Below, in pieces: positions 32,268 through 63,672 of a DNA stretch of 64,000 nt. Made by a program: the position numbers and the translations under genes. Below the pieces are notes generated by a model. That model was not told the DNA's origin. It worked only from the letters and a program-made list of their open reading frames with translations, and did no database searches. The stretch's first letter is position 1, and each line of letters opens with the position of its first letter. The stretch comes from a virus, in IMG/VR virus record IMGVR_UViG_3300027917_000021, positions 32,001-96,000 of that record. The stretch is one strand, 5' to 3'.

Positions 32268-32688
32268 ACAAAGTAAAGCAGAAAGTAAAAAACAACAAAG
32301 ATTCATGGGCATGGTTCATGCTGTGCAAAAAGGAGAATTATCTCCTAAAGAAGTTGGACCAGCAGTTCGTAAAGCTGCCCGTGAAATGAAATATAAAGAT
32401 GCGAAAGACTTCGCAGAAACAAGCCACAAAGGATTACCAGAAAAAAAAGGGTCAGTACAAATGAAGTATTTTGAGAAAACAGCTTTCAAACCTATGGAGG
32501 CATTAAAAAACATATTTAGTAAAGGACCTGGTACAGCTATGGTAAAAGCAGCCCCAACAGCAGTTATGACACAAGCCCCAAAAGCCCAACAAAAAGTAAA
32601 ACGCTTGTTTGATGCAAGGGCTCTTGCCTCTGCAGGCATAGGCGGTGCTGCAGCAGGCTATGGTTTAGGATCAATTGGTAGCGAATAA
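32260..32688 (+). CDS. DUF3008-like domain fused to MKYFEKTA-tagged glycine-zipper module
   Basis: SKKQQRFMGMVHAVQKG...KDFAETSHKGLPEK (DUF3008-like); internal ATG 32461 MKYFEKTA. Confidence 0.75.
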   Translation: MYKQSKAESKKQQRFMGMVHAVQKGELSPKEVGPAVRKAAREMKYKDAKDFAETSHKGLPEKKGSVQMKYFEKTAFKPMEALKNIFSKGPGTAMVKAAPTAVMTQAPKAQQKVKRLFDARALASAGIGGAAAGYGLGSIGSE

Positions 32689-32808
32689 TAAAATATTTTA
32701 TAAAAAACACATCCTAAAAGATTTGTTAAAGGAATCTTGGGACTAGGCACTGGTTTAGCCATCGCAGGATATGGGCTCAGTGGAGGAAGTATTAAAAATA
32801 AAAATAAG
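32688..32808 (+). pseudogene. decayed MKYFEK-family gene
   Basis: ATA AAA TAT TTT ATA AAA (IKYFIK) then frameshifted ...GILGLGTGLAIAGYGLSGGSIKNKK*. Confidence 0.5.
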
Positions 32809-32822
32809 GAAAAATTATAAAA

Positions 32823-33239
32823 ATGAAATATTTTGAGAAATTAGCCAAAGAAGACCCGGGATATTTTGGAAAACAAATGGCTGCAACACGAGCATCGAGA
32901 ATTCATGATTCTGCGGCCGGGACATTAGTTGCAGATCCGAAATTGATTAAGAAAAGATTTGAAAAAGCAATTACATATGGTGTTCCAGCAGCTATAGGAG
33001 GTGCCGGAGTAGGAGCTTTAGTAGGAAAAATGAAGGGATATACAGGTTTCGGAGCAGCAGCTGGTGCTATATTAGCAGGTTATGGCGGTGAAGTAGCCGG
33101 CATACTGAAAGCAGACAAAGAATATTTAGCTAAAAAAGGAATTGAATTATCAGCATTTGGAAACGTCAAGAAAATGACTCCAGAGGCAAAAAAGAAATAT
33201 TTACACGAGAAATACCGCGGCGGCGGTTATAAAGGATAG
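32823..33239 (+). CDS. MKYFEKLA-tagged glycine-zipper protein (putative internal virion/ejection protein)
   Basis: Tag plus GVPAAIGGAGVGALVG and GFGAAAGAILAG. Confidence 0.8.
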   Translation: MKYFEKLAKEDPGYFGKQMAATRASRIHDSAAGTLVADPKLIKKRFEKAITYGVPAAIGGAGVGALVGKMKGYTGFGAAAGAILAGYGGEVAGILKADKEYLAKKGIELSAFGNVKKMTPEAKKKYLHEKYRGGGYKG

Positions 33240-33249
33240 GAAAATAAAA

Positions 33250-33660
33250 ATGAAGTATTTTGAAAAAATAGCTATATCAAAAGAAGAAGAACAAACTTAC
33301 AAAAGAGCCCCATATAGGCTAGTGCCTTATGTAGGGCCATATTTAGGGACTCCAAAAGGTATGAGAAAAGAACATCCTTGGGTTTCGGCTCTATGGGGAC
33401 CCCCGGGGTCATTTGGTGCAAAATCAAAAGATACTGGAAAATCTTATTTAGAAGAAGCAGTTAAAACTGAAGCAGCAGTTCAAACTGGTATTGGTGCCGT
33501 AGCAGGCACTGTAGCAGGCGCTATGGCAGGAGCTAGAGGAAAACAATTAGCCAAAGTTATTGCTGCAGCTACAGGAATTGGTGCGGCCAGTGGGGCGGCC
33601 GGCGGTGCAATTGCTTACGGCGGTGGAAAATTATTTGCTGGGCAAAAGAAAAAAAAATAA
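33250..33660 (+). CDS. MKYFEKIA-tagged glycine-zipper protein
   Basis: Tag plus long GxxxG/A-rich helices, basic C-terminus. Confidence 0.8.
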   Translation: MKYFEKIAISKEEEQTYKRAPYRLVPYVGPYLGTPKGMRKEHPWVSALWGPPGSFGAKSKDTGKSYLEEAVKTEAAVQTGIGAVAGTVAGAMAGARGKQLAKVIAAATGIGAASGAAGGAIAYGGGKLFAGQKKKK

Positions 33661-33699
33661 TGAAATATAATGAAATATAATGAAATATAATGAAATATT
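33660..33699 (+). repeat. 10-bp tandem repeat (ATGAAATATA)x3 + ATGAAATATT
   Basis: Reiterated start of the MKY tag upstream of 33690. Confidence 0.9.
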
Positions 33700-34394
33700 T
33701 TGAAAAAAATGCTGCATCTGGTTCCATAGGTCTTTGGCCAGTTCCTAAAAATCTTGCAGGGGCGGCAATAGGAGCTACTATTTTTGGCCTTTCTGGATAT
33801 TCAGATGCAGATAAGGATAATAAATGGACATCTACAGCCAGTTCTGCATTATTAGGAGGAGTATTAGGCGCCGGAGCACAAGGTGCAGCAAGAGCAATGA
33901 AAAAATCTTTTAAGACGTCATTAAAAATGACAAAAAACATGTCAAAAAAAGACAATCCATTGGGCCAATATTTGTCAGAAGGCGTTGATCCTGCTGTAGA
34001 AAAAAGCAAGCGAGTGATGGACAAATTAAAACGTCAGGAAGACAAAATTAGGTCTCATAAAGCTAGCAAAAGTGGTTTTATGTATGAAGATGCAGTAAAA
34101 TATGTTAGGGAAAAGAAGGCTGCTACATTTAGAGTTTCTGAAAAAGATTTAACAAACAAAGAACTTCAACATGAGTTGAGAAGACCATATTTTGAAGGAT
34201 CTTTGCAGAATATGGCTTTTGGTGGAACATTTGGTGCAACCGCTTCTTTGCTTAATAAAGGAAAATCATACGGAAAAAATCTTCTAACTGGTGTTGCGGC
34301 TGGACTCATAGCAACTCCTATAGTTAATGCGTTAGATAAAAAAGACATATTAAAAGAAGTAGATCGCAGAAAGAAACACAAAGGTTATAGATAG
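33690..34394 (+). CDS. MKYFEKNA-tagged protein with two glycine-zipper modules
   Basis: Tag; internal KYVREKKA separates two Gly/Ala-rich hydrophobic modules. Confidence 0.8.
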   Translation: MKYFEKNAASGSIGLWPVPKNLAGAAIGATIFGLSGYSDADKDNKWTSTASSALLGGVLGAGAQGAARAMKKSFKTSLKMTKNMSKKDNPLGQYLSEGVDPAVEKSKRVMDKLKRQEDKIRSHKASKSGFMYEDAVKYVREKKAATFRVSEKDLTNKELQHELRRPYFEGSLQNMAFGGTFGATASLLNKGKSYGKNLLTGVAAGLIATPIVNALDKKDILKEVDRRKKHKGYR

Positions 34395-34666
34395 TGAAAT
34401 ACTTTGAAAAAATATCAGAGTATAAAGAGTGGGATGATAGACACGCATTCACAGAAAATATACCGGGAGGTGCTGCTATCGGAGCTTTCGTTGGTCCAAT
34501 AGCTGCTAAATTACAAGCACAATTAATAAATCGTAAATTAAAAGCTATAGAAGAAATTAAACCATTTAAACCCGCCTTAATTAGAGCGAGCATTATTGGT
34601 GGTTTATTAGGGTCCATTGTTGGAGCTGGTAAATATGTCTATGAAAAAGAATACTACACAAAATAA
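34394..34666 (+). CDS. MKYFEKIS-tagged glycine-zipper protein (GTG start)
   Basis: Tag plus GGAAIGAFVG and GGLLGSIVGAG. Confidence 0.75.
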   Translation: MKYFEKISEYKEWDDRHAFTENIPGGAAIGAFVGPIAAKLQAQLINRKLKAIEEIKPFKPALIRASIIGGLLGSIVGAGKYVYEKEYYTK

Positions 34667-35075
34667 ACCTAAATATTACCACTATGGTTATCGTTATATT
34701 AAACCACAGGATGAGCCTGAAGACTGGGATTATGCCATTCAGATGCATAAAAATCAAAATGGCACCCACTTTGATTTTAGATTAGCGAAGCCAGGACATG
34801 ATTATGCTTATTCCTGGGCATCACGCAAGCCACCTCTTAATATTACATCTCCTATTTTAACCCGCCGAACACATGATCATACTATAGAGCATATGGATTT
34901 TGAAGGTCCTCTTGAAACAGCAAGAGGCACGGGCACTGTGCAATTGCTTAAAAGGGGCAAAACTAAATTGCATTCTATAGATGATAAAGGTATTAAGTTT
35001 AAACTTGATACTGGTGAATTTTTACTTTTAACAAATGTTAAAGGTAAAAAATATATTCTAACAACTCCAACCTAA
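34635..35075 (+). CDS. stand-alone LigD-type 3'-phosphoesterase domain protein
   Basis: IQMH...HFDFRL...SWA.RK...THDH...FEG...GTG.V matches the LigD PE motif set. Confidence 0.8.
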   Translation: MSMKKNTTQNKPKYYHYGYRYIKPQDEPEDWDYAIQMHKNQNGTHFDFRLAKPGHDYAYSWASRKPPLNITSPILTRRTHDHTIEHMDFEGPLETARGTGTVQLLKRGKTKLHSIDDKGIKFKLDTGEFLLLTNVKGKKYILTTPT

Positions 35076-35105
35076 AAAAGAAAGGCCACATATGTGACCT
35101 TTCTC
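35074..35105. terminator. bidirectional terminator with ACATATGT core
   Basis: AAAGGCCACATATGTGACCTTT between convergent genes. Confidence 0.7.
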
Positions 35106-35114
35106 TAGACAATC

Positions 35115-35642
35115 CTACTTCTCGGTATCGTCTTTTGGCTCGAGTTTTTCAAGCTTCGATTTGGCGGCCTTAAGCTCTTTTTCAAGCTTGGTTTTTTCCG
35201 CCGAGGCAGTTTTCAATTCACCGGATGTCTTTTTCAGTTCTTCATCTCTCTGCTCAAGAGTATTTTGGAAAGCACGGTTTTTTTCGATTTCCTGCTCGTA
35301 CTTTACCTGTATTTCCTTCTTGTCATTTTCGGAAATTTCCAGCAATTTAACGGACTCTGTGAAATCATCTTCCAATTTGGCATGTTTTTCACTTACATCC
35401 TGATAAAGAGCTTTATAATCCTTGTCATCTTTCGACTTGGATTTTTTCCAAAAAGCCAGCTTGGAAACCTTTCCAAGAACTGATTTTCCGGTAGACTTCA
35501 TACCGTTTGAAAACTTCTCAGCAGCCTGTTTCGGAACAGCCTTGACATCACTAATTGTGACGTTGGCAGTCTTTCGTCCAACGAAAGCACCACCAATAGC
35601 TGTTGCAATGCTTGAGCCAACAATGACTAATACGCGGTTCAT
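35115..35642 (-). CDS. N-anchored coiled-coil protein
   Basis: Hydrophobic N-terminus, long Lys/Glu coiled coil; AGGAGG RBS; GGNATAAGA motif upstream. Confidence 0.75.
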   Translation of the reverse strand: MNRVLVIVGSSIATAIGGAFVGRKTANVTISDVKAVPKQAAEKFSNGMKSTGKSVLGKVSKLAFWKKSKSKDDKDYKALYQDVSEKHAKLEDDFTESVKLLEISENDKKEIQVKYEQEIEKNRAFQNTLEQRDEELKKTSGELKTASAEKTKLEKELKAAKSKLEKLEPKDDTEK

Positions 35643-35674
35643 AATTACCTCCTAAAAGTTAGATTGTTTAATTC

Positions 35675-35688: not shown

Positions 35689-35709
35689 ATATTTGTGCTA
35701 TAATTCTAC

Positions 35710-36682: not shown

Positions 36683-36878
36683 AATAAGATTAATTAATTC
36701 CAATGCTGTTCGAGAAGCAAAACCAGTGCCTGCTTTAGCAAACATACAAAATATGGTATCAAGAAAATTGGCTGAATTAAATATTTATACTACTAATTTA
36801 TCAATCACGATGACTGCAGGAAAATATCCTGATGTAAATATAGAAGGTGTTTTAAATACAGATTTATGGCCAAAATAG
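36675..36878 (+). CDS. hypothetical protein
   Basis: Overlaps both neighbours. Confidence 0.55.
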   Translation: MTKIRLINSNAVREAKPVPALANIQNMVSRKLAELNIYTTNLSITMTAGKYPDVNIEGVLNTDLWPK

Positions 36879-38419
36879 TTAAAATAGCCCCTAGCCAGTT
36901 TACAGAGCGATTTCTCTATCTAAATGGTAAACCGTTTTCATTTTCGAATTATGAATTCATGAAACCGATTTATGATTTAGATGCATCAGAAATTGTAATG
37001 AAATTTTCTCGTCAAACATCAAAGTCTACTACCATGGCGAATATTATGATGTCTAAAGCGGCCATGACACCGCATTTTAGACAATTGTATGTATCACCTT
37101 CAGTAGACCAAACAAAAATATTTTCTGGTGATCGTGTAGCACCGGTAATTGAATCAAGCCCTATTGTTAAAAAGCATTATGTGAATTCGAATGTATCACA
37201 GAATGTGTTTACAAAACGATTCCTTAACGGAAGTGTGCTATATCTCAGATATGCACAACAATCAGCTGACCGCCTCCGTGGTTTGTCAACCGATATAAAT
37301 TACTACGACGAAGCACAGGATTTGAATATGGAGATCATTCCTGTTGTTAATCAGTCTATGTCCAGGTCTTTATATAAAAAGACAGTTTATTCCGGAACTC
37401 CAAAAAGAACAAAAGGTACGTTAGCTGAACTTTGGTACCGCTCCACAATGTATGAATGGTTCTCTAAATGTGAGCATTGTGGTAAGTGGAATTACTTAGA
37501 TCAGAAAAACATCGGGTTGCATGGTGTCATATGCCGATACTGTGGGGAGCATCTTGACACTTCTAAAGGTCAATGGGTTAGTACTGGAGACAGAGATTCT
37601 AGAACCAAGGGTTTTAGGGTTAACCTATTGATGTTTGAGGCAGCACCCTGGGTTGATTGGCAAACTGACGTTATAGAGTACCGTAAGACTTGTCCAAGTG
37701 ATGCTATTTTTTATAATGAAGTTTTAGGTCTAGAATATGACGACGGTGTACAGCCAATCACCCTTGCTGATTTAAGAAGGTGTGCAACTGGCGGTCCGAT
37801 GCTGGAAGATCCAACCCAATTAGACTTATCAAGAGTACATACAACAATGGGGTTAGATTATGGGCCGGTAAACAGTAATAAATCTAAAACAGTTGCCTGT
37901 GTTATACAAAGAGATTCCGATAAAATAAAAGTTAAATATTTAAAAAGATATAAAGGCCATGAGGCTGATTATTCTTTTATTCATGGTGATATTCCACAGA
38001 TTTTTGCCAAATGGCATGCGGTGGTTATAGGGGCTGATGCTGGATTAGGAGATGGCCCTAATTCTGAAATACGGGCGCGTATTGGTATGCCTGAGCGATT
38101 GATTGCATTTAGGCATTCAGGATCACAAAGAGCAAAAGCAAAGTGGAATCCAAGTAGCAGTGAGTATACGCTTAATCGCAATATGGTCATGACAGACCTG
38201 TTCCGCAAGATTAAAAACAGACAAGTAGAGTTCCCTCGTTGGGAAGACTTTGAGCCTTTTGCCGACGATTTTATGAATATTGTAATCGAATATGATGATC
38301 GTTTAGGTACATATAAATATGTAAATACTGGCCCAGACGATGCACTACATTCAATTTTGTTTGGTGAGTTGGCACTTCAATTATTAACCGCGCGTGACGC
38401 AATGTTGATGGACTATTAA
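36866..38419 (+). CDS. terL: terminase large subunit (lambda gpA-like)
   Basis: KFSRQTSKST Walker A, RLRG..YYDEAQD Walker B, SGTP, CEHC/CRYC, GLDYG and DDALHS RNase H acidic residues. Confidence 0.9.
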   Translation: MAKIVKIAPSQFTERFLYLNGKPFSFSNYEFMKPIYDLDASEIVMKFSRQTSKSTTMANIMMSKAAMTPHFRQLYVSPSVDQTKIFSGDRVAPVIESSPIVKKHYVNSNVSQNVFTKRFLNGSVLYLRYAQQSADRLRGLSTDINYYDEAQDLNMEIIPVVNQSMSRSLYKKTVYSGTPKRTKGTLAELWYRSTMYEWFSKCEHCGKWNYLDQKNIGLHGVICRYCGEHLDTSKGQWVSTGDRDSRTKGFRVNLLMFEAAPWVDWQTDVIEYRKTCPSDAIFYNEVLGLEYDDGVQPITLADLRRCATGGPMLEDPTQLDLSRVHTTMGLDYGPVNSNKSKTVACVIQRDSDKIKVKYLKRYKGHEADYSFIHGDIPQIFAKWHAVVIGADAGLGDGPNSEIRARIGMPERLIAFRHSGSQRAKAKWNPSSSEYTLNRNMVMTDLFRKIKNRQVEFPRWEDFEPFADDFMNIVIEYDDRLGTYKYVNTGPDDALHSILFGELALQLLTARDAMLMDY

Positions 38420-41557: not shown

Positions 41558-42517
41558 ATGACAAACGAGCAAATCGAATACTTCGGAAAAGAAGCGGCTA
41601 AAACATACCTTGAAGAAGGCACTGAATTAAATGAAACAATTACAAAAATAGCAGAAGAACACGCTCTTAACCGATATGAAATCGAAAGAATAGTAGAAGC
41701 GGCAAACACTAATACTTATTTATCTATGTTTAGTAATTTAGATGATAAATATATAGAATTTCCAGTAGCAGATGTTGAAAAAATAGCAGAAGCTTTATCG
41801 CCTATTGTGGAAGATGATCCGTATTATGATTATGATGAGCCGCCTGAAAAAGAATTAGAAGAAGTACAAATTTTTCCAGTTGAGGGTGCTGAGAAGACAT
41901 CCTCCGTTGCAGAAGAAAACAAGTTTTCTTCTGAAAATCTTCAATTCCGTCAGCGTGCTAAGTATGCAGAACAACAATTGATAGAAAGAATATCTCTAGC
42001 TGAGAATGCTTTTTCGGAGGAAACAGAGAATCTTTATCAAATGGTAAAACAAGCGGTGCTATCTGGTACCCGCTTCGGGCATATCAAAGCCGCGATGGAA
42101 CAGTACTCTCCTGGAAAATTTGTAGAAAAATTTGCTGAGTATACAAAAGAAAGATTAAAAAAAGAAGATCTTAGACTTGATCTTTCTGATTGTGAAGAAA
42201 AACTTGGTACAGTAAATAAAAATAATGAAATTATGAAGCAGCTTGATAAGATTGCAAATATTTATGGTGAAGCTGCTGTGTATAATGAAAAACTTGCAGC
42301 TTTTGGTTTAGATGTTGTCCGCCGCCTAGGTTCCGGTGCAATGAATTTTGGAAGAGGTGCTTTACGGTTCGCGGATACACACTCACGTACGGCATTATTT
42401 GGAACTGCAGCCGCAGGAGCTGTTGGTAGTGGTATAGCATATAAAGCAGGAAAAACAAAAGCTGAATATGAATTGTCTGCCATCCGAAACATACCACAAA
42501 AATATCAGAAGAGGTAA
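41558..42517 (+). CDS. head core/scaffold-like protein with KxA sites and C-terminal Gly/Ala module
   Basis: Acidic helical; GKEA, TKIA, EKIA, EKFA, DKIA, EKLA followed by basic Gly/Ala-rich tail. Confidence 0.6.
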   Translation: MTNEQIEYFGKEAAKTYLEEGTELNETITKIAEEHALNRYEIERIVEAANTNTYLSMFSNLDDKYIEFPVADVEKIAEALSPIVEDDPYYDYDEPPEKELEEVQIFPVEGAEKTSSVAEENKFSSENLQFRQRAKYAEQQLIERISLAENAFSEETENLYQMVKQAVLSGTRFGHIKAAMEQYSPGKFVEKFAEYTKERLKKEDLRLDLSDCEEKLGTVNKNNEIMKQLDKIANIYGEAAVYNEKLAAFGLDVVRRLGSGAMNFGRGALRFADTHSRTALFGTAAAGAVGSGIAYKAGKTKAEYELSAIRNIPQKYQKR

Positions 42518-42520
42518 TGA

Positions 42521-43159
42521 ATGAAAAATGTGGAGCGAATAATCCGCCTTTATAAAGATGGAAAAATAGATGACACAACCATGGTTAAGATGGCAGTATT
42601 CAAAGAAAAGGTTGCAGAACTGATTAAAGAAAGTGGGCCCGGCGGTTTAACAAAAAATCAAGTATTGATGGCAGCTGCAATCTCTGCTGGTATTGGTTTG
42701 GGAAGTCAGGCTATTGAAAGTTTATCTAATTACTTTATAACAACGCGTGCAAAAAAACAATTAGATGAAACAACCGAGAAAATATTTGAAGATATTTATA
42801 ATTCACCGGAAGTAAAATCCTTTCCACGTGAAGTTGCGGAACAATATTTTAATACATTGAAACATTTTTCACCACATGTTGCCTCTGATCCATTAGCTGC
42901 AAAAACTTATTTATTGCAAATGCTCAAATGGTCAGATGAATATTCCGCTCCTATATCTACTATGACTGTAAGAGATTTAGCAGAAGTAGAAAATAAAGCT
43001 ATGGATGCTTTAAATAAAAGACCACTAGCAGGACCAGATATTGGTAAATTTACAGCACCAATTGTGGAGAGCATACAAAAAGCACCAAAAAACTTGTATA
43101 CGGAAATAAAAGAAACGCCACAGTCACTTCAAACAAGTATGTTTAACGAATATGATTAA
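42521..43159 (+). CDS. head-associated protein
   Basis: VKMA, EKVA, IKES then AAAISAGIGLG hydrophobic helix; position before protease. Confidence 0.55.
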   Translation: MKNVERIIRLYKDGKIDDTTMVKMAVFKEKVAELIKESGPGGLTKNQVLMAAAISAGIGLGSQAIESLSNYFITTRAKKQLDETTEKIFEDIYNSPEVKSFPREVAEQYFNTLKHFSPHVASDPLAAKTYLLQMLKWSDEYSAPISTMTVRDLAEVENKAMDALNKRPLAGPDIGKFTAPIVESIQKAPKNLYTEIKETPQSLQTSMFNEYD

Positions 43160-44891
43160 ATATTTAGATTATTATCCAGGCGATAAAGGCGTTGAAATTT
43201 CTCTGATACATCCTGGTGTAATGGAGAAAACAGCCGAATATCATCCGGAACTACAAGAATTTTTACAAGTTTTAAAACCAGACCCAAAAAGATACTTTCT
43301 TTTAGTCAATGCATTAGGTGCAGGCGAATATTATGGCAGTAATCGCAATGGTGATTATTTCCCTGAACCTGCTTTGGTTGAATATCATAAGACCTTTGAA
43401 ACACTTGGAAAAGTATTTAGACATCACAAAAATAAACCTCAATTAGGCCATCGTGTTTATGGTGAAATTCTTTATTCTCATTATAATCCTAAAATGCACA
43501 GAGTAGAATTGGTTATTGGGCTTGATGTTGGTGCAGCACCAGATCTAAAAGAAAGAATTGATCGTGGTGAATTTCCACCAATTTCTATGGGATCGAAAGT
43601 TCCTTATGATGAATGTTCTATTTGTGGTAATAAAGCACCAAGAATACAGGATTATTGTGAACACGCAAAAACAATGATGAATCATGTTATGCCTGATGGT
43701 CGTAAAGTTTATGTTATTAATCGCAAACCTAAGTTTTTTGATATCAGCTTCGTTCATGTGCCGGCCGATCGTACAGCATATACTTTACGAAAAGTTGCTG
43801 AATACGTAGAAGAGGAACCATCGGCTATTAAAACTGCAAAAGCATTAAAACAGGCTGGCATTAAAGAATCAACCATCGTAAAAATCATAGATGGTCAAGT
43901 TGACTATGCCGGGCCAGATCCAAGCCGTCTTATTGTAGAATCACAGCCTAATATGTCAAAAAGGCTGATTAATGATTTGGCACATTCAGCCCCATTAAAT
44001 GAAGTACTAAGTACTCTCGTAGCTACAAGAGTTATGCCTAAAAAAGCAGAATTTCAAAGATTAATATTAACTGCAAAAGGCCAAGAAAAATTAGCAGAAG
44101 AACTTGAGAGAGAAAAAGTTTGTTTTATTATACATGATGATATTGAACCGGTTATTCCGAATGATGTGAATATTCATCAGTTCAACCAAAAAACAGCAGA
44201 AGTATTACGTTCTTATCCAGAATATTTTGAAAGAGCGCCATTAACTAAACCGGTTGTCATGGCCCGGATACTTGAGAAATATGCATTTTTAGATACTGGC
44301 CATCAAAAAGGCAGTCCAATGGAACAAGCAGGAGTAATCCCTCCTTTAAAAGATATGCCTGACGACAAACAAAATACTCATGGAGAAGAACAGCCTATTA
44401 TATCCCCTATAAAAAACCCACTAATACCTCTTACAGCAATAGGCGGTTTATATTTAGGTGTTTCAAAACTTATGAATTCTTTTGGTGCTGCAGAAGGACT
44501 AAAAGCATTATTGGCAAATAATCCGTGGTTGCTTCCTATACTTATAGGAGGAGCAACTATTGGTAGCATGGAAATGCAAAAGCGATTATTTGAAAAAACT
44601 GCTTCCGGAGTTGGATTTTTAGGAAGTATGTTATTAAGTGTTCCGGCCACTTATCTTTATGCCGGTTTTCAGGAAAACAAAGTAAGGCAAGGCAGACCAA
44701 TAGGCTCTTATTCTAACTTTGTTAGAAAGAATCCTCTATTGGCAAGCATTGGCCATGGTTTTCTTGGCAGTAAGACAACAAAATTGTTGTCTAAAGTAGG
44801 AGAAGCAAAAGGCAAACTTTTTGATGCTTCTCTTCAATTAGATGAACAAAAATTTAATAATATTTATAATATTGTTATACATGGTAATTAG
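43152..44891 (+). CDS. prohead maturation protease (HK97/assemblin-type, Zn-ribbon insertion) with C-terminal extension
   Basis: NRNGDYF, FRHH (catalytic His), ISMG (catalytic Ser), CSICG..CEH, FFDISFV.VPAD. Confidence 0.8.
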   Translation: MIKYLDYYPGDKGVEISLIHPGVMEKTAEYHPELQEFLQVLKPDPKRYFLLVNALGAGEYYGSNRNGDYFPEPALVEYHKTFETLGKVFRHHKNKPQLGHRVYGEILYSHYNPKMHRVELVIGLDVGAAPDLKERIDRGEFPPISMGSKVPYDECSICGNKAPRIQDYCEHAKTMMNHVMPDGRKVYVINRKPKFFDISFVHVPADRTAYTLRKVAEYVEEEPSAIKTAKALKQAGIKESTIVKIIDGQVDYAGPDPSRLIVESQPNMSKRLINDLAHSAPLNEVLSTLVATRVMPKKAEFQRLILTAKGQEKLAEELEREKVCFIIHDDIEPVIPNDVNIHQFNQKTAEVLRSYPEYFERAPLTKPVVMARILEKYAFLDTGHQKGSPMEQAGVIPPLKDMPDDKQNTHGEEQPIISPIKNPLIPLTAIGGLYLGVSKLMNSFGAAEGLKALLANNPWLLPILIGGATIGSMEMQKRLFEKTASGVGFLGSMLLSVPATYLYAGFQENKVRQGRPIGSYSNFVRKNPLLASIGHGFLGSKTTKLLSKVGEAKGKLFDASLQLDEQKFNNIYNIVIHGN

Positions 44892-44894
44892 GTA

Positions 44895-44923
44895 TTGACA
44901 AGAATTGTACAATTCTTTATATT
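44895..44923 (+). promoter_or_regulatory. sigma70-type promoter with palindromic spacer
   Basis: TTGACA-N17-TATATT; perfect palindrome AAGAATTGTACAATTCTT at 44900-44917. Confidence 0.8.
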
Positions 44924-44964
44924 TAAACTGATTTCCATTTAATTTTAAACGGAGGAAAATATAA

Positions 44965-45546
44965 ATGGCTAAAGAAGGATTTAACCTTGAATCTTTTCTA
45001 AAAACTTTAGAAGATGACAAGGAAAAAACAGCTGAAGAAAAAGTAGAAGAACCAGTAGAAGAGCCTACTGAAGAACCTACTGAAGAACCTACTGAAGAAG
45101 AACCAGCAGAAGAAACAAAAACTGCTGAAAATCTCGAAAGAGAAAAAGTAGCTGAGCTGGTGGAAGAAGGCCAAATCATGGCTCGCGCTTTCCACGAAGA
45201 ATTAACAAAACTTGCTGTTGGTGATGGACCTTATACACCAAATCCAGCAGCTATAAAAGAGCCTAACGAAGTTAGCCACATGAGTGTTGGTGACATTAAA
45301 ATGGACCAAACAGCCAAAGTGGAAGCTCTTTTAAATCAAATTCAAGCTGCTGTACGTAGTGGTGGCGGAGACATGACATTTACGTTTAATCCTGGTGGGT
45401 CACAACCGGTAGTACCAGATGAAACCGTACTTCCTGCAGATGCTGCATCAGCACAAAAATCTCAAGCAGCCGCTGCAAGCATGAATAAAGCTGCAGCCGC
45501 AAAAATCATTGATAATCTTTACAAGAAAGTATTTGGAGAAGAATAA
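44965..45546 (+). CDS. scaffold-like acidic protein
   Basis: EEPT repeats; EKTA, TKTA, EKVA, TKLA; GGAGG RBS. Confidence 0.65.
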   Translation: MAKEGFNLESFLKTLEDDKEKTAEEKVEEPVEEPTEEPTEEPTEEEPAEETKTAENLEREKVAELVEEGQIMARAFHEELTKLAVGDGPYTPNPAAIKEPNEVSHMSVGDIKMDQTAKVEALLNQIQAAVRSGGGDMTFTFNPGGSQPVVPDETVLPADAASAQKSQAAAASMNKAAAAKIIDNLYKKVFGEE

Positions 45547-45839
45547 TGGGACTTTTAGAAACTTACGAAGCCATGCAAAAAGAGGCAGCGGTTGCGGAAG
45601 TTGAAGCCCAACGTCGCGAAATGTTGACGAAATATGCTTCTGCCGCTGAAGAACTTCTTGAGAATGAATATGGCGATGATTATAATGCTGATGATGTAGA
45701 ACTATTAGCTGAGAAATTAATTGAAGCTGATGTAGAGGCTATGGAACAGCAAGAAAAAGTTGCTGAATATGAAGAAGCCGGCAAAATAATGGCACAAGCT
45801 TTTATTAAAGAGCTTAAAGAAAAAAAATCCGAAAAATAA
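45546..45839 (+). CDS. scaffold-like acidic protein
   Basis: Shares EKVAE..E.G.IMA.AF..EL with 44965 and 45840. Confidence 0.65.
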   Translation: MGLLETYEAMQKEAAVAEVEAQRREMLTKYASAAEELLENEYGDDYNADDVELLAEKLIEADVEAMEQQEKVAEYEEAGKIMAQAFIKELKEKKSEK

Positions 45840-46292
45840 ATGAACATACAAAGAATACAGTTTCTGGAAAAATATGCTGCCCGAGCTGAAAATCTTTTGT
45901 CACAAAAATTCGGAAAAAATTATACGCCAGAAGATGTAGAGAAACTTGCTGAAGCATTGATACGCCTGGACGTTAAGCGGGCAGCGAATATCGATCGTGT
46001 TGAAGAATTAGTCAAACAGGCACAATATACAGCAAACGCTTTTGTAAAAGAAATAAACAAAGAATTGGGAGAAGATGCTTTTGCTAAATTAGCGAAAGCA
46101 CCTTTTCTTGATGCTTTAAAGCTATTAGTAAAAGGTAAAGGATCCGAGTTCAGCCAAAAACTTATAGGAGCCTTAAAAAATACCGGCCAAAGAACGATGA
46201 AATTTGTAAAAACAGATCCTTATTTGGCTGCCGGATTTGCCGGAGCTGGTGGTGCAACTGCTCTTACTGGCCATGCTTTATTATCGGATTAA
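45840..46292 (+). CDS. scaffold paralog with C-terminal Gly/Ala module
   Basis: Aligns with 45546 (KYA..AE.LL...G..Y...DVE.LAE.LI..DV); ends AAGFAGAGGATAL. Confidence 0.65.
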   Translation: MNIQRIQFLEKYAARAENLLSQKFGKNYTPEDVEKLAEALIRLDVKRAANIDRVEELVKQAQYTANAFVKEINKELGEDAFAKLAKAPFLDALKLLVKGKGSEFSQKLIGALKNTGQRTMKFVKTDPYLAAGFAGAGGATALTGHALLSD

Positions 46293-46298
46293 ACGCGA

Positions 46299-46778
46299 AT
46301 GATTAGTTTGAGAAACTTGTTAAAAGACATAGAAGCATCTGAACAAGAGAAGCATGCCGAACAAAGTCCGGAAATTACTATTGACGATTTACGTAATACA
46401 GCAAAATCTCTTGAAAAATTAGCTTCGCCTGATCGTGAGATTGATGTGATAGCTAAATTAGCAGTTCTTATGGATATGGGTCTTACCAAAGAAGCAGCCG
46501 ATATAGTTACAAAGGCTAAAAAATATCTTTGGAAAGTAAAAGATGCAAACAGGGCTGCAAAAATAATGGAAGAAGCGGGAAATATAGAGAAGGAAACAAA
46601 GAGAATCCAAGAAGGTAAAACTCTTGCTAAATATAAATGGCCTGCTATTGCAACCGCTGGTACAGTAGGTGGTTTGTATTTAGGTTCACAAATATCTGAA
46701 AAAAACAAAAAAGATGAACTTAAAAACGTTGCTCGTAAATACTTCTCTCTTGGCCGACAATCCGCAGGAGGAGCATAA
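46299..46778 (+). CDS. head-associated protein with KxA sites and TM-like segment
   Basis: EKHA, EKLA, AKLA, TKEA; AIATAGTVGGLYLG. Confidence 0.6.
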   Translation: MISLRNLLKDIEASEQEKHAEQSPEITIDDLRNTAKSLEKLASPDREIDVIAKLAVLMDMGLTKEAADIVTKAKKYLWKVKDANRAAKIMEEAGNIEKETKRIQEGKTLAKYKWPAIATAGTVGGLYLGSQISEKNKKDELKNVARKYFSLGRQSAGGA

Positions 46779-47122
46779 TGAGTTTTGAAAAAACAGCTCA
46801 AGAACACTATAATTTTTTACTAGAAGAATATGAAAAATCACACGGTGCAGAAGAACGTGAGAAGCTCGCAATGACCGTAGTTACCAAAATGGTAGAGCGC
46901 GCAGATCTCACAGAGCCCGGTGAGGTTTTAGAAAAGTTGGCAGAACTTCGCCAACAAACAACAGAGGACTTAAAAATTCTCGAAAAAGCGGTCGAGTTGG
47001 GTAGAATTCCTGGGGGTGAGGGACCCACAAAAACAGCGTCAGCTTCGCTGGGTTCCCTAGCGGAGATCCCAAGCGGAGATGACCAGGATAATCTAACAAA
47101 ATTTCTACTCGAAGATTATTAA
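46778..47122 (+). CDS. scaffold-like protein (MSFEKTA start)
   Basis: FEKTA, EKLA x2, TKTA; AGGAGG RBS; just upstream of decoration/MCP genes. Confidence 0.6.
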   Translation: MSFEKTAQEHYNFLLEEYEKSHGAEEREKLAMTVVTKMVERADLTEPGEVLEKLAELRQQTTEDLKILEKAVELGRIPGGEGPTKTASASLGSLAEIPSGDDQDNLTKFLLEDY

Positions 47123-47145
47123 AAATAACGTAAGGAGATGCCCGA

Positions 47146-47607
47146 ATGTTAAGAGTTATTTCCGATTTAACACTGTGCGATCGTTTCGATAAAGAATATG
47201 AAGCTGGTGTAGCTACGAGCGGTGTTGCTGGAATGTGGGTCACTTTGAACTCAAGTGGAAAATTTGACCTTACAGCCACATCTACTGCAACTGGCTTAAG
47301 CTATCAGATCTGGAACGAAAGTAATCGCGATGGCACAGCCGGATTTAGCCCTGATGTTGGCGCAACTACTAAAGTTTCCGTTCTTAAAGGCAGTTATCGT
47401 GCACAAACTGACCAAATAGAAAGTTCTGCATATACTGCAGCTTCTGTTGGTGATGCACTAATGGCTGGAGACGACGGTTTACTTGTAGCTGCATCTGATG
47501 ATGCGGACGGCGCAAAAGCAACAGTGGCTTGGGTAACAGCCAAATTAGGATCTGTTACATATCTTGGCACTACTTACACTAACGTTGTTGAAATACACGT
47601 GAAATAA
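47146..47607 (+). CDS. capsid decoration/cement protein
   Basis: 153 aa beta-rich, VGDAL...DGLL pattern, immediately upstream of MCP; AAGGAG RBS. Confidence 0.6.
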   Translation: MLRVISDLTLCDRFDKEYEAGVATSGVAGMWVTLNSSGKFDLTATSTATGLSYQIWNESNRDGTAGFSPDVGATTKVSVLKGSYRAQTDQIESSAYTAASVGDALMAGDDGLLVAASDDADGAKATVAWVTAKLGSVTYLGTTYTNVVEIHVK

Positions 47608-47621
47608 AGGAGAATAGACTA

Positions 47622-48542
47622 ATGGCTGATGTTCCTGCTAATGTAATTAACGAATTGTTCGTTTCTAAGCTGGATCAACCTGAAGGTCGCGAAAAGCTGG
47701 CTGCTGAAGGCTCTGCCTTCATTCGTACAAAGCTGCGTGAAGTATCCTTTGCACGTAAAATCATCAACCCAGTGTATGTGACCAAAGCTGATCTACAAAG
47801 ATCCGTACAACATGACGGTTTGGTAAAAATCGTCGATATTGAGCCTGATTCTGCAGCAATGGCTATCAACTTCCGTGGTGGAGCTGATACCCGTTACGTA
47901 GAAGGCGAACGCTACGAGATTCCTTTCTTCATGATTACTTCTGAAGATTTTCAGAAAACTGAAGAGGAACTGTTAGCGTATGAAATGCCGATTACAGACG
48001 TTATCGAAAGAAACTCTGTAAAAGACATCCAAGAAATTGAAGATAGTGCATTCATTACTCGTGTCAACGCAGCAATTGCAGTGTCTGGAAAATCAAATGT
48101 TGCTGTAACTACTTCTGGTGGTTATATTGACAAAACAGTTTTTGCGACATTGTTTAACCTGCTTGAAGCCGGTGGTGGCACAGTAGATCGTCTAAAAACA
48201 GAAGTTGTTCTTATGAACAACCAAGATTATAATGATCTATTACTATGGGAAGCCAACAGTGTAGGCGACCAAGTTGGTGCAGAAATCACTGTCAATGGTT
48301 ATACGTATGCAACTCTTTTTGGTAAGAGACTTATTGTAACCAATAAAGCAGATTTAGTTCCTGCAAAAACTATTTATGCCTTTGCAGCACAAGAGTTCTT
48401 AGGAAACTTTTTTATCCTGAACGATACACGGTTCTGGATTGACAAGAAAAAGAACCTGGTAACATGGAGTGCATATGAAAGCATTGGTATGGGTATCGGA
48501 AATATCCGTGCAGTTGCATCTGTTACTTGGACAAGCGCGTAA
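47622..48542 (+). CDS. major capsid protein (HK97 fold)
   Basis: Strong RBS and terminator; LREVSFARKI, IQEIEDSAF, LMN..DY.DL, YESIGMGIGN. Confidence 0.85.
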   Translation: MADVPANVINELFVSKLDQPEGREKLAAEGSAFIRTKLREVSFARKIINPVYVTKADLQRSVQHDGLVKIVDIEPDSAAMAINFRGGADTRYVEGERYEIPFFMITSEDFQKTEEELLAYEMPITDVIERNSVKDIQEIEDSAFITRVNAAIAVSGKSNVAVTTSGGYIDKTVFATLFNLLEAGGGTVDRLKTEVVLMNNQDYNDLLLWEANSVGDQVGAEITVNGYTYATLFGKRLIVTNKADLVPAKTIYAFAAQEFLGNFFILNDTRFWIDKKKNLVTWSAYESIGMGIGNIRAVASVTWTSA

Positions 48543-60012: not shown

Positions 60013-60776
60013 ATTTAAGCATATACAAAGGCAATGATAAAACCTTTGAAATAGAAGTAACAGACCAGGACGATGAAATTATTAATTTGAGTGGTGGACA
60101 ATTATTTGTAAATGTTACCGATTGGCAGGAAAACTCAAAAATTACAAAATCTAGCACCGACCCGACTCAAATAGAAATAACAGATCCGGAAGCTGGATTA
60201 GCACAAATACATTTTGTTCCTACTGACACGTCGTCTCTTGCTTCTGACATTTATGTTGTTTATATTAATTATATTAACTACGAGGGAAAGACTTATACTA
60301 TTTCTCAAGGTGAGTTTCAAATCTTAGATTTGGGAACTATCTCTTATATAAGAAACAGAATAAGAAATTTCAATGGAGACAAAGAAGAATTAAACGTACT
60401 TATTAGAGCATTAGAAACAACAGATGAAGAAATGAATGATTACATACAAAAGGCGGTTGATTTGTTTAACAGCCTTGGGTATACAACCTCATATACTTTA
60501 TCTGATTATCCTAATAAGGGAAATTTAATAGAGGGCACAGTAATCCAAATTTTGATGGGCAAAGGTATATTATCAGCAAGAAATATGCTTACTTATCGGG
60601 ATGAAGGAGGTATAACTGTACAAGATTTTGACACATATGGTCGGTATATTAATTTGTTTAATGTTTATATTAATCGATATATGCAGCAAGCAATGGATAT
60701 TAAAAGAAGTCTTAATGTAGATGGTGCATATGGAAGCATTGAAAGCCCAATGAATTATGTAGATATCTGGTATTAA
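60009..60776 (+). CDS. BppU-like domain plus putative head-tail adaptor
   Basis: IYKGNDKTFEIEV...G.....PTDT..L...Y; helical C-terminal adaptor-like domain with GGITV. Confidence 0.6.
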   Translation: MNLSIYKGNDKTFEIEVTDQDDEIINLSGGQLFVNVTDWQENSKITKSSTDPTQIEITDPEAGLAQIHFVPTDTSSLASDIYVVYINYINYEGKTYTISQGEFQILDLGTISYIRNRIRNFNGDKEELNVLIRALETTDEEMNDYIQKAVDLFNSLGYTTSYTLSDYPNKGNLIEGTVIQILMGKGILSARNMLTYRDEGGITVQDFDTYGRYINLFNVYINRYMQQAMDIKRSLNVDGAYGSIESPMNYVDIWY

Positions 60777-60779
60777 TAA

Positions 60780-63269
60780 ATGATTACATTAGAAAATGTT
60801 ACAGTAGATACTTTAGGACTGGGCAACAGAAGAATACAATGGGAAGTAGTTCCGACACACGAAGATCTTAACCTATTTTTGTTGGATGTATATCGTGCGG
60901 AAGCTCCCGGGGCATTGTCAGAATTTGACCTGGTTGTATCAGGTTTATCTGTTCTCGATGGTACGTATATTGATAGTGGACTGCAAAGAATGGATTATTC
61001 TACAAACCGACAGATATACTATTACCTAAATGTATTAGACACAGGTACCGCGGAAACATCACTCGAAGGTCCATATGTGATGGAATCTGAGCCGGATTAT
61101 GCTTCTAATGAAATACTTCGTCGCTATGGCATTTTCTTTGACAATCCACGCTATCAGGTTCGTACATTTTATGTATTAAAGAAACGTACCTGGGGAAATC
61201 AATGCTCATGCATCGATGATGTAACACAGGAACCTAGAAACGAAAATTGTACTATATGCTATGGTACAGGTATAGTAGGCGGTTATTTTAATCCAATTGC
61301 TGTTCGAGGAATGCGTTCAGACAAGCCAAGTCGCCAAATGATAAACCTGTTTGGAGCATGGCAGGACACTAATGTATTTTTCAAACTGGAAAATACCGTT
61401 AAGGTAATTCCCGGTGATTATATTGTCGACGAACATAATGAAAGATATCTGATCGAAGGGCCTGTAAATCACCTACAAAAGGGTATTTATACCTTGATGA
61501 GTAATGTTCGTGCCAAAACTGTGTCAAAATCAGATCCGATATATCGGTATGGTATGATTGAAGAACTTGGTGGAACCGAGGAAGAGATTATTATAAGCGG
61601 TAATGAAATAGCGGTATTTAATGGGACATCCTCCTATATGGAAATTATAGACAATGATTTATTGTCTTTTTTAAATGGGTCGTTTAGTATTACTGGATGG
61701 TTTGAATTAAATAATGCTCCTCCCGGACCATCAATTTCAGAAACAATAAGTCAAACGGTTTGCGATGATGAAGGTTTATATGAAGCAGAATCCATTACTT
61801 TATCAAATGGCAATGTTTTTATGGCATATTCAGATTACACAAATATTTATGCTTCCTACAACATTATTACACAAAGTGGAACTGAAGTAACTGGTCCAAT
61901 AGTATTGGAAAACACTATGGGCAGTGTATTTAGTGTTACCCAATTAACCAATAATAATATATTTATATGTTATGCATCAGGACCAGACAGTTCAAAACCT
62001 GCCAAGTATGCCTTAGTAGATGAATCTGGAACTTTGCTGGCTGGTCCCATAGCAGTCCCAGGAATTACATATTCCAATTATTTTGGTTGCACTAAAACAA
62101 ATAATGGAAATATTTTTGTAGTATATTCAGACCCCGATGATGGAAATAAAGGGAAATTTATAATTTTAGATAATTCAATTAATTTAATTTTTGGCCCAAC
62201 TACCTTCCATTCCAATGTAACATATTATCAGAGAGTATCTTTATTACAAAATGGTAATATATTTTTAAGTTATTCTAACCAATCGGATAATCGTGGAGAA
62301 TTTGTAATTTATTCTCAAGCCGGAGCACTTATTAAATCTGCTACTATTTTTGAAACAAATCCTGTTTATGATTTATGGAGTTCAATATTAGTAGGAGGAA
62401 ATATAATTATAGTATATGGAACTACATCAGATTCATCTGGTAAATTTACCATATATGATGAAAACGGAAATATAATAAAAACCCCAACTACCTTTGAATC
62501 AGGAGGAGCATCTTATTATAATTCTGTAGCGCCTACATTAGATGATCGAGCTGTTATAGTATATCAAAATCCTTCTAGTTATTATACATCATGTGTAATA
62601 GTTGATAGTGAAGGAACCATAACACAAAGTTCTTTTAATATTAATACTAATGAAACTTATGATTCACATATAACTCTGCTTGGAAATGGAAATGTAATGA
62701 TACTTTATGATGTGTATGATGGAGTAGATACGGCAATTTTACAAGTTTATGATGTAATAGGACAATATCAACCACTATTAGTGAAAGACGATAAATCATT
62801 GAATCATGAATGGATATTAGTATATGATAATTCAGGCAACATACATATTCGCATAATTGGTTCAAACAATAATTTTATAGGTAAATATTATAATTATCCA
62901 ATAAATGGAGAACTTCATCATTATGCAATTACATATAATGGTAATAATTCCTCAGACGGAATTAATTTATATATAGATAATAATTTAGTTCAGTCAATAC
63001 CAAATAATTTAGGAATATATACACCACCAATTAATACAAGTTTAAATGTGTTTATTGGAAAATGGGCAAATTCTTTTTTTGCTGGAAAAGCACGAGATAT
63101 TAAAATATTTAATAAGGCATTATCAAGTGCAGATATAAATCAAGAATATGCCCTGGGAAATTATAGAGTTGGAATAGTTGCAAATTACAAATTACACGAA
63201 GACACAAATGATTATGGAAGATATAGTTTACACGGTATAAACACAGATATAATATTTACACAGGAATAA
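60780..63269 (+). CDS. neck/head-closure-like protein fused to LamG-like domain with propeller-like repeat insertion
   Basis: CSC..CTICYGTG..GGY; FNGTSSY..FSITGW and HHYAITY..LYID..IGK..F.G.....IFNKALS (LamG); LxNGN.F..Y repeats. Confidence 0.6.
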   Translation: MITLENVTVDTLGLGNRRIQWEVVPTHEDLNLFLLDVYRAEAPGALSEFDLVVSGLSVLDGTYIDSGLQRMDYSTNRQIYYYLNVLDTGTAETSLEGPYVMESEPDYASNEILRRYGIFFDNPRYQVRTFYVLKKRTWGNQCSCIDDVTQEPRNENCTICYGTGIVGGYFNPIAVRGMRSDKPSRQMINLFGAWQDTNVFFKLENTVKVIPGDYIVDEHNERYLIEGPVNHLQKGIYTLMSNVRAKTVSKSDPIYRYGMIEELGGTEEEIIISGNEIAVFNGTSSYMEIIDNDLLSFLNGSFSITGWFELNNAPPGPSISETISQTVCDDEGLYEAESITLSNGNVFMAYSDYTNIYASYNIITQSGTEVTGPIVLENTMGSVFSVTQLTNNNIFICYASGPDSSKPAKYALVDESGTLLAGPIAVPGITYSNYFGCTKTNNGNIFVVYSDPDDGNKGKFIILDNSINLIFGPTTFHSNVTYYQRVSLLQNGNIFLSYSNQSDNRGEFVIYSQAGALIKSATIFETNPVYDLWSSILVGGNIIIVYGTTSDSSGKFTIYDENGNIIKTPTTFESGGASYYNSVAPTLDDRAVIVYQNPSSYYTSCVIVDSEGTITQSSFNINTNETYDSHITLLGNGNVMILYDVYDGVDTAILQVYDVIGQYQPLLVKDDKSLNHEWILVYDNSGNIHIRIIGSNNNFIGKYYNYPINGELHHYAITYNGNNSSDGINLYIDNNLVQSIPNNLGIYTPPINTSLNVFIGKWANSFFAGKARDIKIFNKALSSADINQEYALGNYRVGIVANYKLHEDTNDYGRYSLHGINTDIIFTQE

Positions 63270-63273
63270 ATCA

Positions 63274-63672
63274 ATGAAATATTTTGAAAAAAATGCAGAT
63301 ATACAATATGCCTTGAAAGGAATGGTCAAGGGATTTAAAGCTGGAACAATGGATTTAGCTACCGCAGCAGATAGAATTAAGAGGTTAGCTGAAAGAAAAA
63401 AGAATTTAATGCAATATATAGACTTAAATCCAAATGTATTTGATCAAAATCCTGCCATGGTAGATAAAGTACATCGTTATTCTAAAATGCTTGTTGGAAG
63501 TAATATGTTATATAATAAAAGGCAGGTTGACCTACTTAAGTTAGGTGCAGCACCAGTGCATCCTATGCAAGGCACACTGCTGAATGTGCAAACAAGAGAA
63601 TCACAAACAAAATACAACTCTAAAGTTTTAGGTAAAAAAAGAGCTGACATTTTAGTACCACTATGGCGTTAA
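63274..63672 (+). CDS. MKYFEKNA-tagged protein
   Basis: Same tag, about 22 kb from the nearest other member. Confidence 0.75.
   Translation: MKYFEKNADIQYALKGMVKGFKAGTMDLATAADRIKRLAERKKNLMQYIDLNPNVFDQNPAMVDKVHRYSKMLVGSNMLYNKRQVDLLKLGAAPVHPMQGTLLNVQTRESQTKYNSKVLGKKRADILVPLWR

Follow-up and report, generated by a model that had tools for sequence, protein, structure and literature searches.

We analyzed a 64,000-nucleotide stretch of viral DNA (hereafter the window), which spans positions 32001-96000 of one contig of 155,895 bp (IMG/VR record IMGVR_UViG_3300027917_000021; 35.5% guanine plus cytosine), and focused on an eight-residue leader, or tag, of the form MKYFEKxA that is shared by 11 of its genes. 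The best match of its large terminase subunit (TerL) among GenBank phages was at most 30% identical, and a DNA-level search of GenBank phages with the tagged-gene block gave no match; judged from its genome, the source is a large tailed phage without a close GenBank relative. The 11 leaders listed in an earlier note on this DNA are all present, and a six-frame scan of both strands of the complete 155,895-bp genome with the expression [MVL][KR]YF[EK]K retrieved exactly these 11 copies, all on the + strand and all inside the window. In 10 of them the tag begins at the earliest start codon (ATG, GTG, or TTG) available downstream of the in-frame stop that precedes it, and the remaining copy (32461) is internal. 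The back-translated pattern AARTAYTTYGARAAR matched nine times in the window, against 0.04 ± 0.20 expected from 100 dinucleotide-preserving shuffles. Five tagged genes lie upstream of TerL, five between TerL and the head-assembly genes, and one after the large tail genes (Table 1). The tag is not equally common on replication or other non-virion genes, as all 11 copies fall in the structural block and the remaining ~230 genes of the genome carry none. A literature search for "MKYFEK" returned a single, unrelated paper on an Eph receptor.

When IMG/VR was scanned with the back-translated tag, only two contigs showed multiple copies, UViG_3300037247_001890 and UViG_3300037247_002101, which overlap end to end (127 and 96 bp, 100% identity). 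Since their ends overlap exactly, these fragments, entered in IMG/VR as separate linear records, constitute one circular relative of ~205 kb, referred to here as R. R is the closest relative of the source phage (TerL 84% identical) and contains 14 tagged open reading frames (ORFs) in a partly different gene set.

Table 1 Tagged genes and associated terminase, protease, and head genes of the window.
Feature	Coordinates	Strand	Leader or motif	Match or property
DUF3008 protein, 142 aa	32260..32688	+	MKYFEKTA, internal, 32461-32484 (residue 68)	Pfam DUF3008, residues 7-63, E 4.8e-6
Tagged ORF, 138 aa	32823..33239	+	MKYFEKLA	Basic, Gly-zipper-like
Tagged ORF, 136 aa	33250..33660	+	MKYFEKIA	Basic, Gly-zipper-like
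Tagged ORF, 234 aa	33690..34394	+	MKYFEKNA	Basic
Tagged ORF, 90 aa	34394..34666	+	(M)KYFEKIS, GTG start	Gly-zipper-like; ortholog in R also tagged
Large terminase subunit (TerL)	36866..38419	+		phrog_675, E 1.6e-68
Tagged ORF, 137 aa	38421..38834	+	MKYFEKLS	No known family
Tagged HExxH protein, 136 aa	38831..39241	+	MKYFKKLA	Putative small gluzincin; paralog of 40593
Tagged SNF2-type helicase, 451 aa	39238..40593	+	(M)RYFEKNA, TTG start	
Tagged HExxH protein, 162 aa	40593..41081	+	MKYFEKQA	
Tagged DUF5662 protein, 137 aa	41078..41491	+	MKYFEKQA	Pfam DUF5662, E 4.5e-10
Head-assembly gene block	41558..47122	+	EKxA-rich	Gene starts 41558, 42521, 43152, 44965, 45546, 45840, 46299, 46778
Prohead protease (residues ~41-217) with ~350-aa helical C-terminal region, 579 aa	43152..44891	+		phrog_18299 head maturation protease, E 4.2e-10
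Major capsid protein (MCP), 306 aa	47622..48542	+	EKLA, residues 24-27 (47691-47702)	phrog_2522 major head protein, E 9.4e-18
Tagged ORF, 132 aa	63274..63672	+	MKYFEKNA	Directly after large tail genes; ortholog in R (37% identity) tagged

The tagged proteins (named here by their start positions) were compared with the tag masked. The sole clear pair of paralogs was 38831 and 40593 (E 2e-17), a weak similarity of the Gly-zipper type (E ~1e-3) linked the five ORFs between 32461 and 34394, and 38421, the SNF2 helicase, the DUF5662 protein, and 63274 were mutually unrelated. The tagged ORFs represent at least six unrelated families, which bears out the claim that the tag sits on mostly unrelated proteins. 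The helicase proposed among them was also recovered, with 39238 matching Pfam SNF2-rel_dom and Helicase_C (each E 1.1e-15) and phrog_62 (E 1.4e-39), while the label "HD-like" given to 41078 had to be abandoned, as Pfam gives DUF5662 only. All 11 tagged proteins are strongly basic, whereas the set of head-assembly proteins is acidic; the net charge per residue of the tagged proteins is +0.094, versus +0.011 for the rest (Mann-Whitney p 1.3e-5).

The description of 38831 and 40593 as metallopeptidases stood in part: all 12 aligned sequences have HExxH and, 25 residues further on, a Glu, but a Pfam search of the HExxH proteins gave no match and no significant fold match was obtained. In the AlphaFold2 (AF2) model of 40593 (predicted local distance difference test score 88), the tag is a flexible, low-confidence extension (the first 10 residues average 56) and the fold begins at about residue 12. 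Foldseek comparison of this model with the PDB returned nothing at E <=0.001, and a wide VIA search gave weak best matches, to the YbeY-like 1oz9 (Z 5.9) and the zincins 3e11, 6mdx, and 6sna (Z 4.4-4.8). The family has only 15 relatives, which are small, clade-restricted proteins with two exceptions, a 606-aa fusion to a helicase (two domains) and a zinc-finger match that is spurious. M[KR]YF[ET]K[TI]A opens nearly all members, and a conserved [AV]GP comes next. P0168 departs from this with a 13-aa leader of another sequence, MSYLVNKLIEKVA, whose final EKVA adjoins the conserved IGP at which the domain starts.

The internal copy of the tag is found in the DUF3008 protein and is followed by a basic, Gly-rich tail. 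The same layout recurs in R, where the tag is doubled, and in the relative L044. A Shine-Dalgarno-like AAGGG or AAGGA precedes the internal ATG by 10-14 nt, suggesting internal initiation in this gene.

The conservation of the tag was then followed at the codon level in 25 tags from the source phage and R, where the reported synonymous variation held and was at or above genome codon usage. Position 2 is encoded by AAA (18), AAG (5), or AGA (2), Tyr3 by TAT (15) or TAC (10, with TAC at 20% genome-wide), Glu5 by GAA (14) or GAG (9 of 23, versus 19% genome-wide), and Lys6 by AAA (18) or AAG (7). Position 7 is free, and position 8 is fixed as Ala or Ser, with all four GCN codons used for Ala and both TCN and AGT for Ser. 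Three start codons (ATG, GTG, and TTG) occur among the tagged ORFs, and the 25 nt 5′ of the tags have almost no information content. Because synonymous codons, start codons, and upstream DNA all vary, this analysis excludes a translation enhancer or a recombination linker acting at the DNA level.

The second half of the tag links it to head assembly. In the 10 + strand proteins encoded from 41558 to 47622 (2,282 aa), EK.A was found 19 times, against 2.27 ± 1.44 in within-protein shuffles, none of which reached 19 (0 of 500). When this head set is compared with the rest of the proteome, EK.A ranks first of all XY.Z patterns (34-fold), and R reproduces the enrichment (23 versus 1.98 expected). 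The tail proteins (4,735 aa) contain no EK.A, and elsewhere in the proteome the count is at expectation (10 versus 11.9). Sibling patterns of the same composition (KE.A, EE.A, AK.E, EK.E, EK.L, and others) occur at most five times each in the head set, so the enrichment does not reflect a generic Glu/Lys/Ala-rich helix composition. The tagged proteins with the tag masked contain one EK.A, versus 1.2 expected, which means that each of them has a single, N-terminal site. The protein of gene 46778 begins with MSFEKTA. At the head-protein sites, a hydrophobic residue is preferred at −1 and Phe is frequent at −2, and M-K-Y-F is not conserved. The EKLA of the MCP is presumed to be the site of propeptide removal, and relatives whose protease is 39-52% identical keep this site, near residue 25, in the form [DE]K[LVA]A.

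A 635-aa protein encoded outside the window (L039:4116-6023, genome positions 22116-24023) has five EK.[AS] sites, with three EK.A versus 0.44 expected, and no match in PHROG, Pfam, GenBank phages, or the ESM Atlas. Three extra small tagged ORFs are inserted around its ortholog in R. It probably represents a further head-internal protein that is processed, or else a portal of very divergent sequence; a BLASTP search with the portal Gp204 of the cultured phage Arash (described below) gave no match in the source genome.

The prohead protease itself carries EKTA at residues 25-28 (43224-43235), at the edge of its folded domain. An AF2 model built from a 39-sequence alignment was confident for residues 30-220, and VIA-align matched it to T4 gp21 (5jbl_A; Z 10.4, root-mean-square deviation 2.8 Å, 128 of 165 residues), followed by the herpesvirus assemblins (Z 7-10). 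K26 and A28 are invariant in the 39 homologs and T27 is nearly so, and in the model K26 and A28 sit where the disordered N-terminus meets the fold. The same alignment shows H91, H92, and S145, candidates for the active site, to be invariant as well. More than 1,700 full-length homologs were found, on contigs of 150-215 kb. The wording "HK97-protease phage" was too loose: the gp21/assemblin fold and the PHROG match to a head maturation protease agree with it, but no Pfam family, including Peptidase_S78 and S78_2, matched at E up to 0.01, and the ESM Atlas gave weak leads only (0.80-0.81 to S78 and S77). A prediction of the complex between protease residues 29-579 (alignment A1) and the first 40 residues of 32823 scored 0.00 and was uninformative either way. 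On its size, its full-length conservation, and the inteins in its homologs, 43152 had also been considered as a portal, a candidate dropped after the protease fold match.

Many of the protease homologs are ~950 aa long and contain intein and LAGLIDADG domains PF14528 and PF14890 (P0013, P0015, P0018, P0023-25, P0070, and others); inteins inside a prohead protease gene seem unusual. The protease domain has an insert at residues ~155-171 in which Cys155, Cys158, and Cys169 are invariant and His171 nearly so (CxxC...CxH); it resembles a zinc-binding insertion and has no described counterpart in gp21 or the assemblins. The C-terminal extension recalls, by analogy only, the protease-scaffold fusion of herpesvirus UL26.

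More distant relatives, found via the protease, keep the core synteny, with 0 to 5 cargo genes in the slot between TerL and 41558 depending on the relative. Their leaders are variants of the same tag: MKYFEKVA, MKYFEKVG, MKFFKKIA, MKFFKDWA, and MKFFSNKP in L040 (49% protease identity), MKYFEKIS, MKYFVKEA, MKYFEKVA, and MKYFTKEA in L048, MKYF[TIV]K[TQ]A on four ORFs of L041 (42% protease identity), one of which is a LigD_N protein, and MTKAETIIIKEA, MTKAESVMEKIA, and MKNIFDKLA in L042 (39% protease identity). Clade-wide, Lys and Ala do not vary, and T, I, V, D, M, or H can take the place of the Glu, from which we infer a K-x-A site with Ala at P1, and not a cut after Glu. The close homologs of the DUF5662 protein start with MKYFEK[TQIN][AS], those further away with MKYFTKEA, MKYFIKES, or MKFFKDWA, and a sister group with MTKAA[NST][IV]F[DEN]KL, and in the most distant ones, which lack a leader, the protein begins with the domain core itself. 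By these alignments, the leader is a clade-specific add-on. Further MTKAA-tagged genes had been predicted around the MTKAA-type DUF5662 gene, but a single MTKAA ORF was found in 20 kb of L047; L042 has two ORFs of this type.

Gene fusions in the clade are informative on the two halves of the tag. In the HExxH-helicase fusions of R and P0159, LKKFIKRA or IKKHIKKTA stands where the source phage has LRYFEKNA. Likewise, N-terminally extended DUF5662 proteins (P0126, P0131, P0133) have SLEKTA, SLEKKA, or NFEKKA at the former tag position and an intact MKYFEK.A at the new N-terminus. In the sequences compared, K-x-A is retained at every fusion domain boundary, and M-K-Y-F occurs once per polypeptide, at the N-terminus. 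As the junctions keep K-x-A and lose Tyr-Phe, the pattern is the one predicted for a cleavage site combined with a separate N-terminal address. At the level of sequence, these comparisons show a signal that is conserved as protein, dependent on its N-terminal position, and modular across at least six unrelated families.

Among cultured phages, an MCP homolog was detectable (25-34% identity) only in Salmonella phage Arash, Vibrio phages D69, D148, and D181, and Bacillus phage G; Arash and the three Vibrio phages, and not phage G, are also among the TerL matches listed. Arash (a myovirus, OQ632216) is 33% identical in the MCP, 32% in the protease, and 29% in the helicase, and its MCP has VKEA at the site that corresponds to EKLA. 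Its Gp217 is a full-length ortholog of the tagged helicase (E 3e-61) and was identified in purified virions by 38 unique peptides and 1,148 spectra, versus 1,333 spectra for the MCP (PMC10585845). This abundance makes the SNF2 helicase of the head module a virion component in the Arash lineage. The head module of Arash is interleaved with genes of virion-associated RNA polymerase subunits.

An exact promoter-like motif, TTGACA-N17-TATATT, has 12 copies genome-wide, 12 of 12 being just 5′ of same-strand genes (one at the contig end, without a called gene). In the window it is found on the + strand at 31684, 35710, 41502, 44895, and 48878, where it precedes the operons of tagged genes, of head genes, and of the first large tail gene, so that the blocks with the first 10 of the 11 tagged genes share it with the head operons.

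The earlier note had read the tag as a portable head-targeting signal, a view now strengthened, since all the computational tests favour a protein-level N-terminal signal tied to head maturation. We consider it probable that MKYFEKxA is a targeting and cleavage propeptide similar to the capsid targeting sequence (CTS) of phage T4, and that it evolved independently. Encapsidation, cleavage, the scissile bond, and ejection into the host are what we infer from this pattern. The tagged cargo would be made late, together with the head proteins, and M-K-Y-F, regarded as the targeting determinant on account of its absence from the head-protein sites, would dock each cargo polypeptide to a component of the prohead core. 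The E-K-x-A half (K-x-A clade-wide) would be the recognition site of the gp21/assemblin-fold prohead protease. After shell assembly, this protease would cut the scaffold-like proteins at their many K-x-A sites, trim the MCP and itself (near residue 27), and remove the eight-residue leader, most likely by cutting after Ala. The intact, strongly basic cargo (the SNF2 helicase, the two HExxH proteins, the DUF5662 protein, the Gly-zipper proteins, and others) may then stay in the head with the DNA and probably enters the host at infection.

Several points weigh against this interpretation. The Arash helicase, which is tagless and was reported with 100% coverage, is packaged without this leader, and the Arash virion proteome, with its 116 proteins, is not very selective (PMC10585845). 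The LigD_N protein is tagged in L041 (MKYFVKQA) and untagged in the source genome, and among the tagged ORFs of R are small ones at loci without a known function or virion link. The DUF3008 protein retains a complete internal tag in three genomes, and such a copy would misfit a strictly N-terminal signal unless internal initiation occurs. The sole ground for a targeting role of MKYF is its absence from the head-protein sites, and Tyr-Phe could be extended protease subsites, because the logo of these sites prefers a hydrophobic residue at −1. The tagged clade, moreover, is known from sequences alone, without a cultured member.

The strongest competing explanation, unlikely in our estimate, is that the leader is only a propeptide removable by the protease, all eight of its residues being subsites, and that it has no targeting role or keeps the enzymes inert until maturation. 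The cargo would then reach the prohead by other means, or cleavage would happen outside the head. The identity of the EKxA half with the head-protein motif would be explained, as would the resemblance of Tyr-Phe to the hydrophobic −1 and frequent Phe −2 of the head sites and the presence of the Arash helicase in virions without any tag. However, M-K-Y-F is dispensable for recognition, as the head-protein sites do not conserve it, and the fusion junctions keep K-x-A and lose Tyr-Phe while the full tag is found at the new N-terminus, implying a separate function exerted once per polypeptide. A flexible extension of eight residues is also unlikely to inhibit at least six unrelated folds, and prohead proteases of the T4 gp21/assemblin fold act inside assembled proheads.

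It seems improbable to us that the leader acts at the protein level in sorting or stability and has nothing to do with the capsid, whether through recognition by the tagged HExxH peptidases or a host protease, as an N-terminal degron or anti-degron, or by targeting the Gly-zipper proteins to a membrane. Several tagged proteins do look membrane-active, with Gly-zipper features, two are themselves putative peptidases, and some tagged ORFs of R lie beyond its recognisable head module. Nevertheless, the motif common to the MCP, the protease, and the scaffold-like proteins ties the tag to head maturation, and the K-x-A sites of the head proteins persist in relatives whose 21-kb head regions show no HExxH-family gene. 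The helicase and the DUF5662 protein, furthermore, are not membrane proteins, and all the copies of the source genome are in the structural block.

Still less likely is a gene-start cassette, inherited or spread by recombination and functionless as a peptide, whether a leftover of shared ancestry or a short linker that favours the shuffling of cassettes. It would fit the gain and loss of genes in the post-TerL slot between relatives, the ten residues that the helicase and 63274 share (RYFEKNADI), and the fusion and fission events that fall exactly at tag positions. But no stretch of DNA identity is available for recombination, since synonymous sites vary as genome codon usage allows, and the leader amino acids are kept in relatives at 42-50% protease identity while the adjacent sequence is unrelated and internal copies decay selectively. 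A translation-initiation enhancer acting at the nucleotide level as an A/T-rich downstream box is scarcely credible, for although ATGAAATATTTTGAAAAA is A/T-rich and unstructured and an AAA second codon is known to favour initiation, the third positions vary freely, Ser8 comes from unrelated codon families, the start codons include GTG and TTG, position 8 is fixed next to an unconstrained position 7, and the ~230 other genes do without the tag.

Other genes surround the tagged ones. A LigD_N-type 3′-phosphoesterase protein adjoins the head module across the clade (window 34617-35075; L041:20732-21172; also in L040, L044, and L048). A frameshift joining the tagged 90-aa ORF 34394 to the LigD_N ORF was considered and rejected, as the LigD_N ORF has its own ATG and an upstream in-frame stop and no slippery site was found in three genomes. 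A long same-strand run of glycosyltransferase and sugar-modification genes lies 5′ of the structural genes (window 4508-31625); its last part, 30924-31625, has a galactosyl transferase as its PHROG match, and at the corresponding location relatives encode Glycos_transf_2 and Glyco_transf_9. In L041, a homolog of ribosomal protein S21 (PF01165) is encoded immediately 5′ of the terminase (L041:6664-6849).

If the leader is a targeting propeptide, the packaged and probably injected proteome of the clade could be predicted from sequence, and would include the SNF2 helicase and the HExxH, DUF5662, DUF3008-linked, and Gly-zipper proteins. The natural fusions and fissions separate the targeting half from the cleavage half, and the tag would be a second candidate for protein encapsidation in an HK97-fold shell; to our knowledge, very few phages apart from T4 have a defined, short, and portable head-loading signal. 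More tentatively, and with rather less than even confidence, we propose that a two-module address, in which M-K-Y-F docks to a core receptor and K-x-A releases the cargo, is a widespread and unrecognised loading system of uncultured phages of 150-215 kb. In that case, the flavour of the leader would co-evolve with the receptor, the gain or loss of eight codons would switch the head residency of a gene, and the helicase, peptidases, and membrane-active proteins would reach the host as a first-wave toolkit.

Four known systems invite comparison. Polyvalent proteins, described by Iyer, Burroughs, Anand, de Souza, and Aravind in 2017, carry SWI2/SNF2 ATPase and zincin-like peptidase domains, are encoded beside the terminase and portal genes, and were suggested to be packaged and to accompany the DNA on delivery, P1 DarB being an example of a packaged SNF2 ATPase (PMC5512222). 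The HExxH and helicase domains found in one polypeptide in R and P0159, with K-x-A at the junction as in a processable polyprotein, are similar to them. Polyvalent proteins, however, have two to fifteen domains per polypeptide, while in the source genome the domains are separate ORFs, each with its own tag, and the fusions of the clade (R, P0159) reach two domains only. Helicase 39238 aligns to the middle of the 1881-position phrog_62 profile, which is merely suggestive for membership. The signature Pfam families of polyvalent proteins (MPTase-PolyVal, LPDs, PBECR, and others) gave no match at E up to 5, and no giant polyvalent relative of the HExxH protein was found among 1.84 billion representatives. 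With separate ORFs and none of these families, the tagged proteins fall, by sequence, outside the polyvalent proteins in the formal sense.

In phiKZ, 201phi2-1, and SPN3US, head and ejection proteins are processed at S/A/G-x-E by gp175 or gp245, a gp21-like protease, and the SPN3US paralogs gp53 and gp54 have identical conserved N-termini on diverged proteins, noted as CTS-like (PMC5694885). Propeptides of the phiKZ type are mostly longer than 100 residues and confined to paralogs, whereas the tag described here has eight residues and spans at least six unrelated families. The cargo-loading peptides of encapsulins are also short and portable and direct unrelated cargo into an HK97-fold shell, but they are usually C-terminal and uncleaved and bind the shell protein directly, and encapsulins have no protease, portal, or DNA.

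The closest parallel is with T4, where the CTS of IPI-III and Alt, of about 10 aa (MKTYQEFIAE), is removed by the prohead protease gp21, which cleaves after Glu in (L/I)-x-E. In both systems, a short N-terminal leader is common to otherwise unrelated basic proteins, which are head-internal in T4 and inferred to be so here. In both, the leader ends with a motif that recurs in core proteins and in the propeptide of the MCP (a presumed one here), although here the likeness is one of motif identity and cleavage is predicted, and the head module encodes a prohead protease of the gp21 fold, according to our structural model (Z 10.4). In contrast, MKYFEKxA has no sequence similarity to the T4 leader, and the site would be K-x-A, as opposed to the (L/I)-x-Glu of T4, and would probably have Ala at P1, like the V-x-A|S site of the herpesvirus assemblins. 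The protease of the source phage is also fused to the ~350-aa C-terminal region, a 451-aa SNF2 helicase and HExxH proteins are among the cargo, the clade is uncultured and unrelated to the Tevenvirinae, and function is deduced where in T4 it is known. As in T4, relatives retain the leader on sets of cargo that are hypervariable from one to the next (PMC3012670, PMC5694885). As neither the sequence nor the predicted cleavage motif corresponds, MKYFEKxA is to be seen as an analogue, and not a homologue, of the T4 CTS. Programmable protein packaging, which the earlier note had foreseen as a use of the tag, is not new as a concept, since it has long been achieved with the T4 CTS (PMC3012670, PMC5694885); the principle is already known from T4, and MKYFEKxA extends it.

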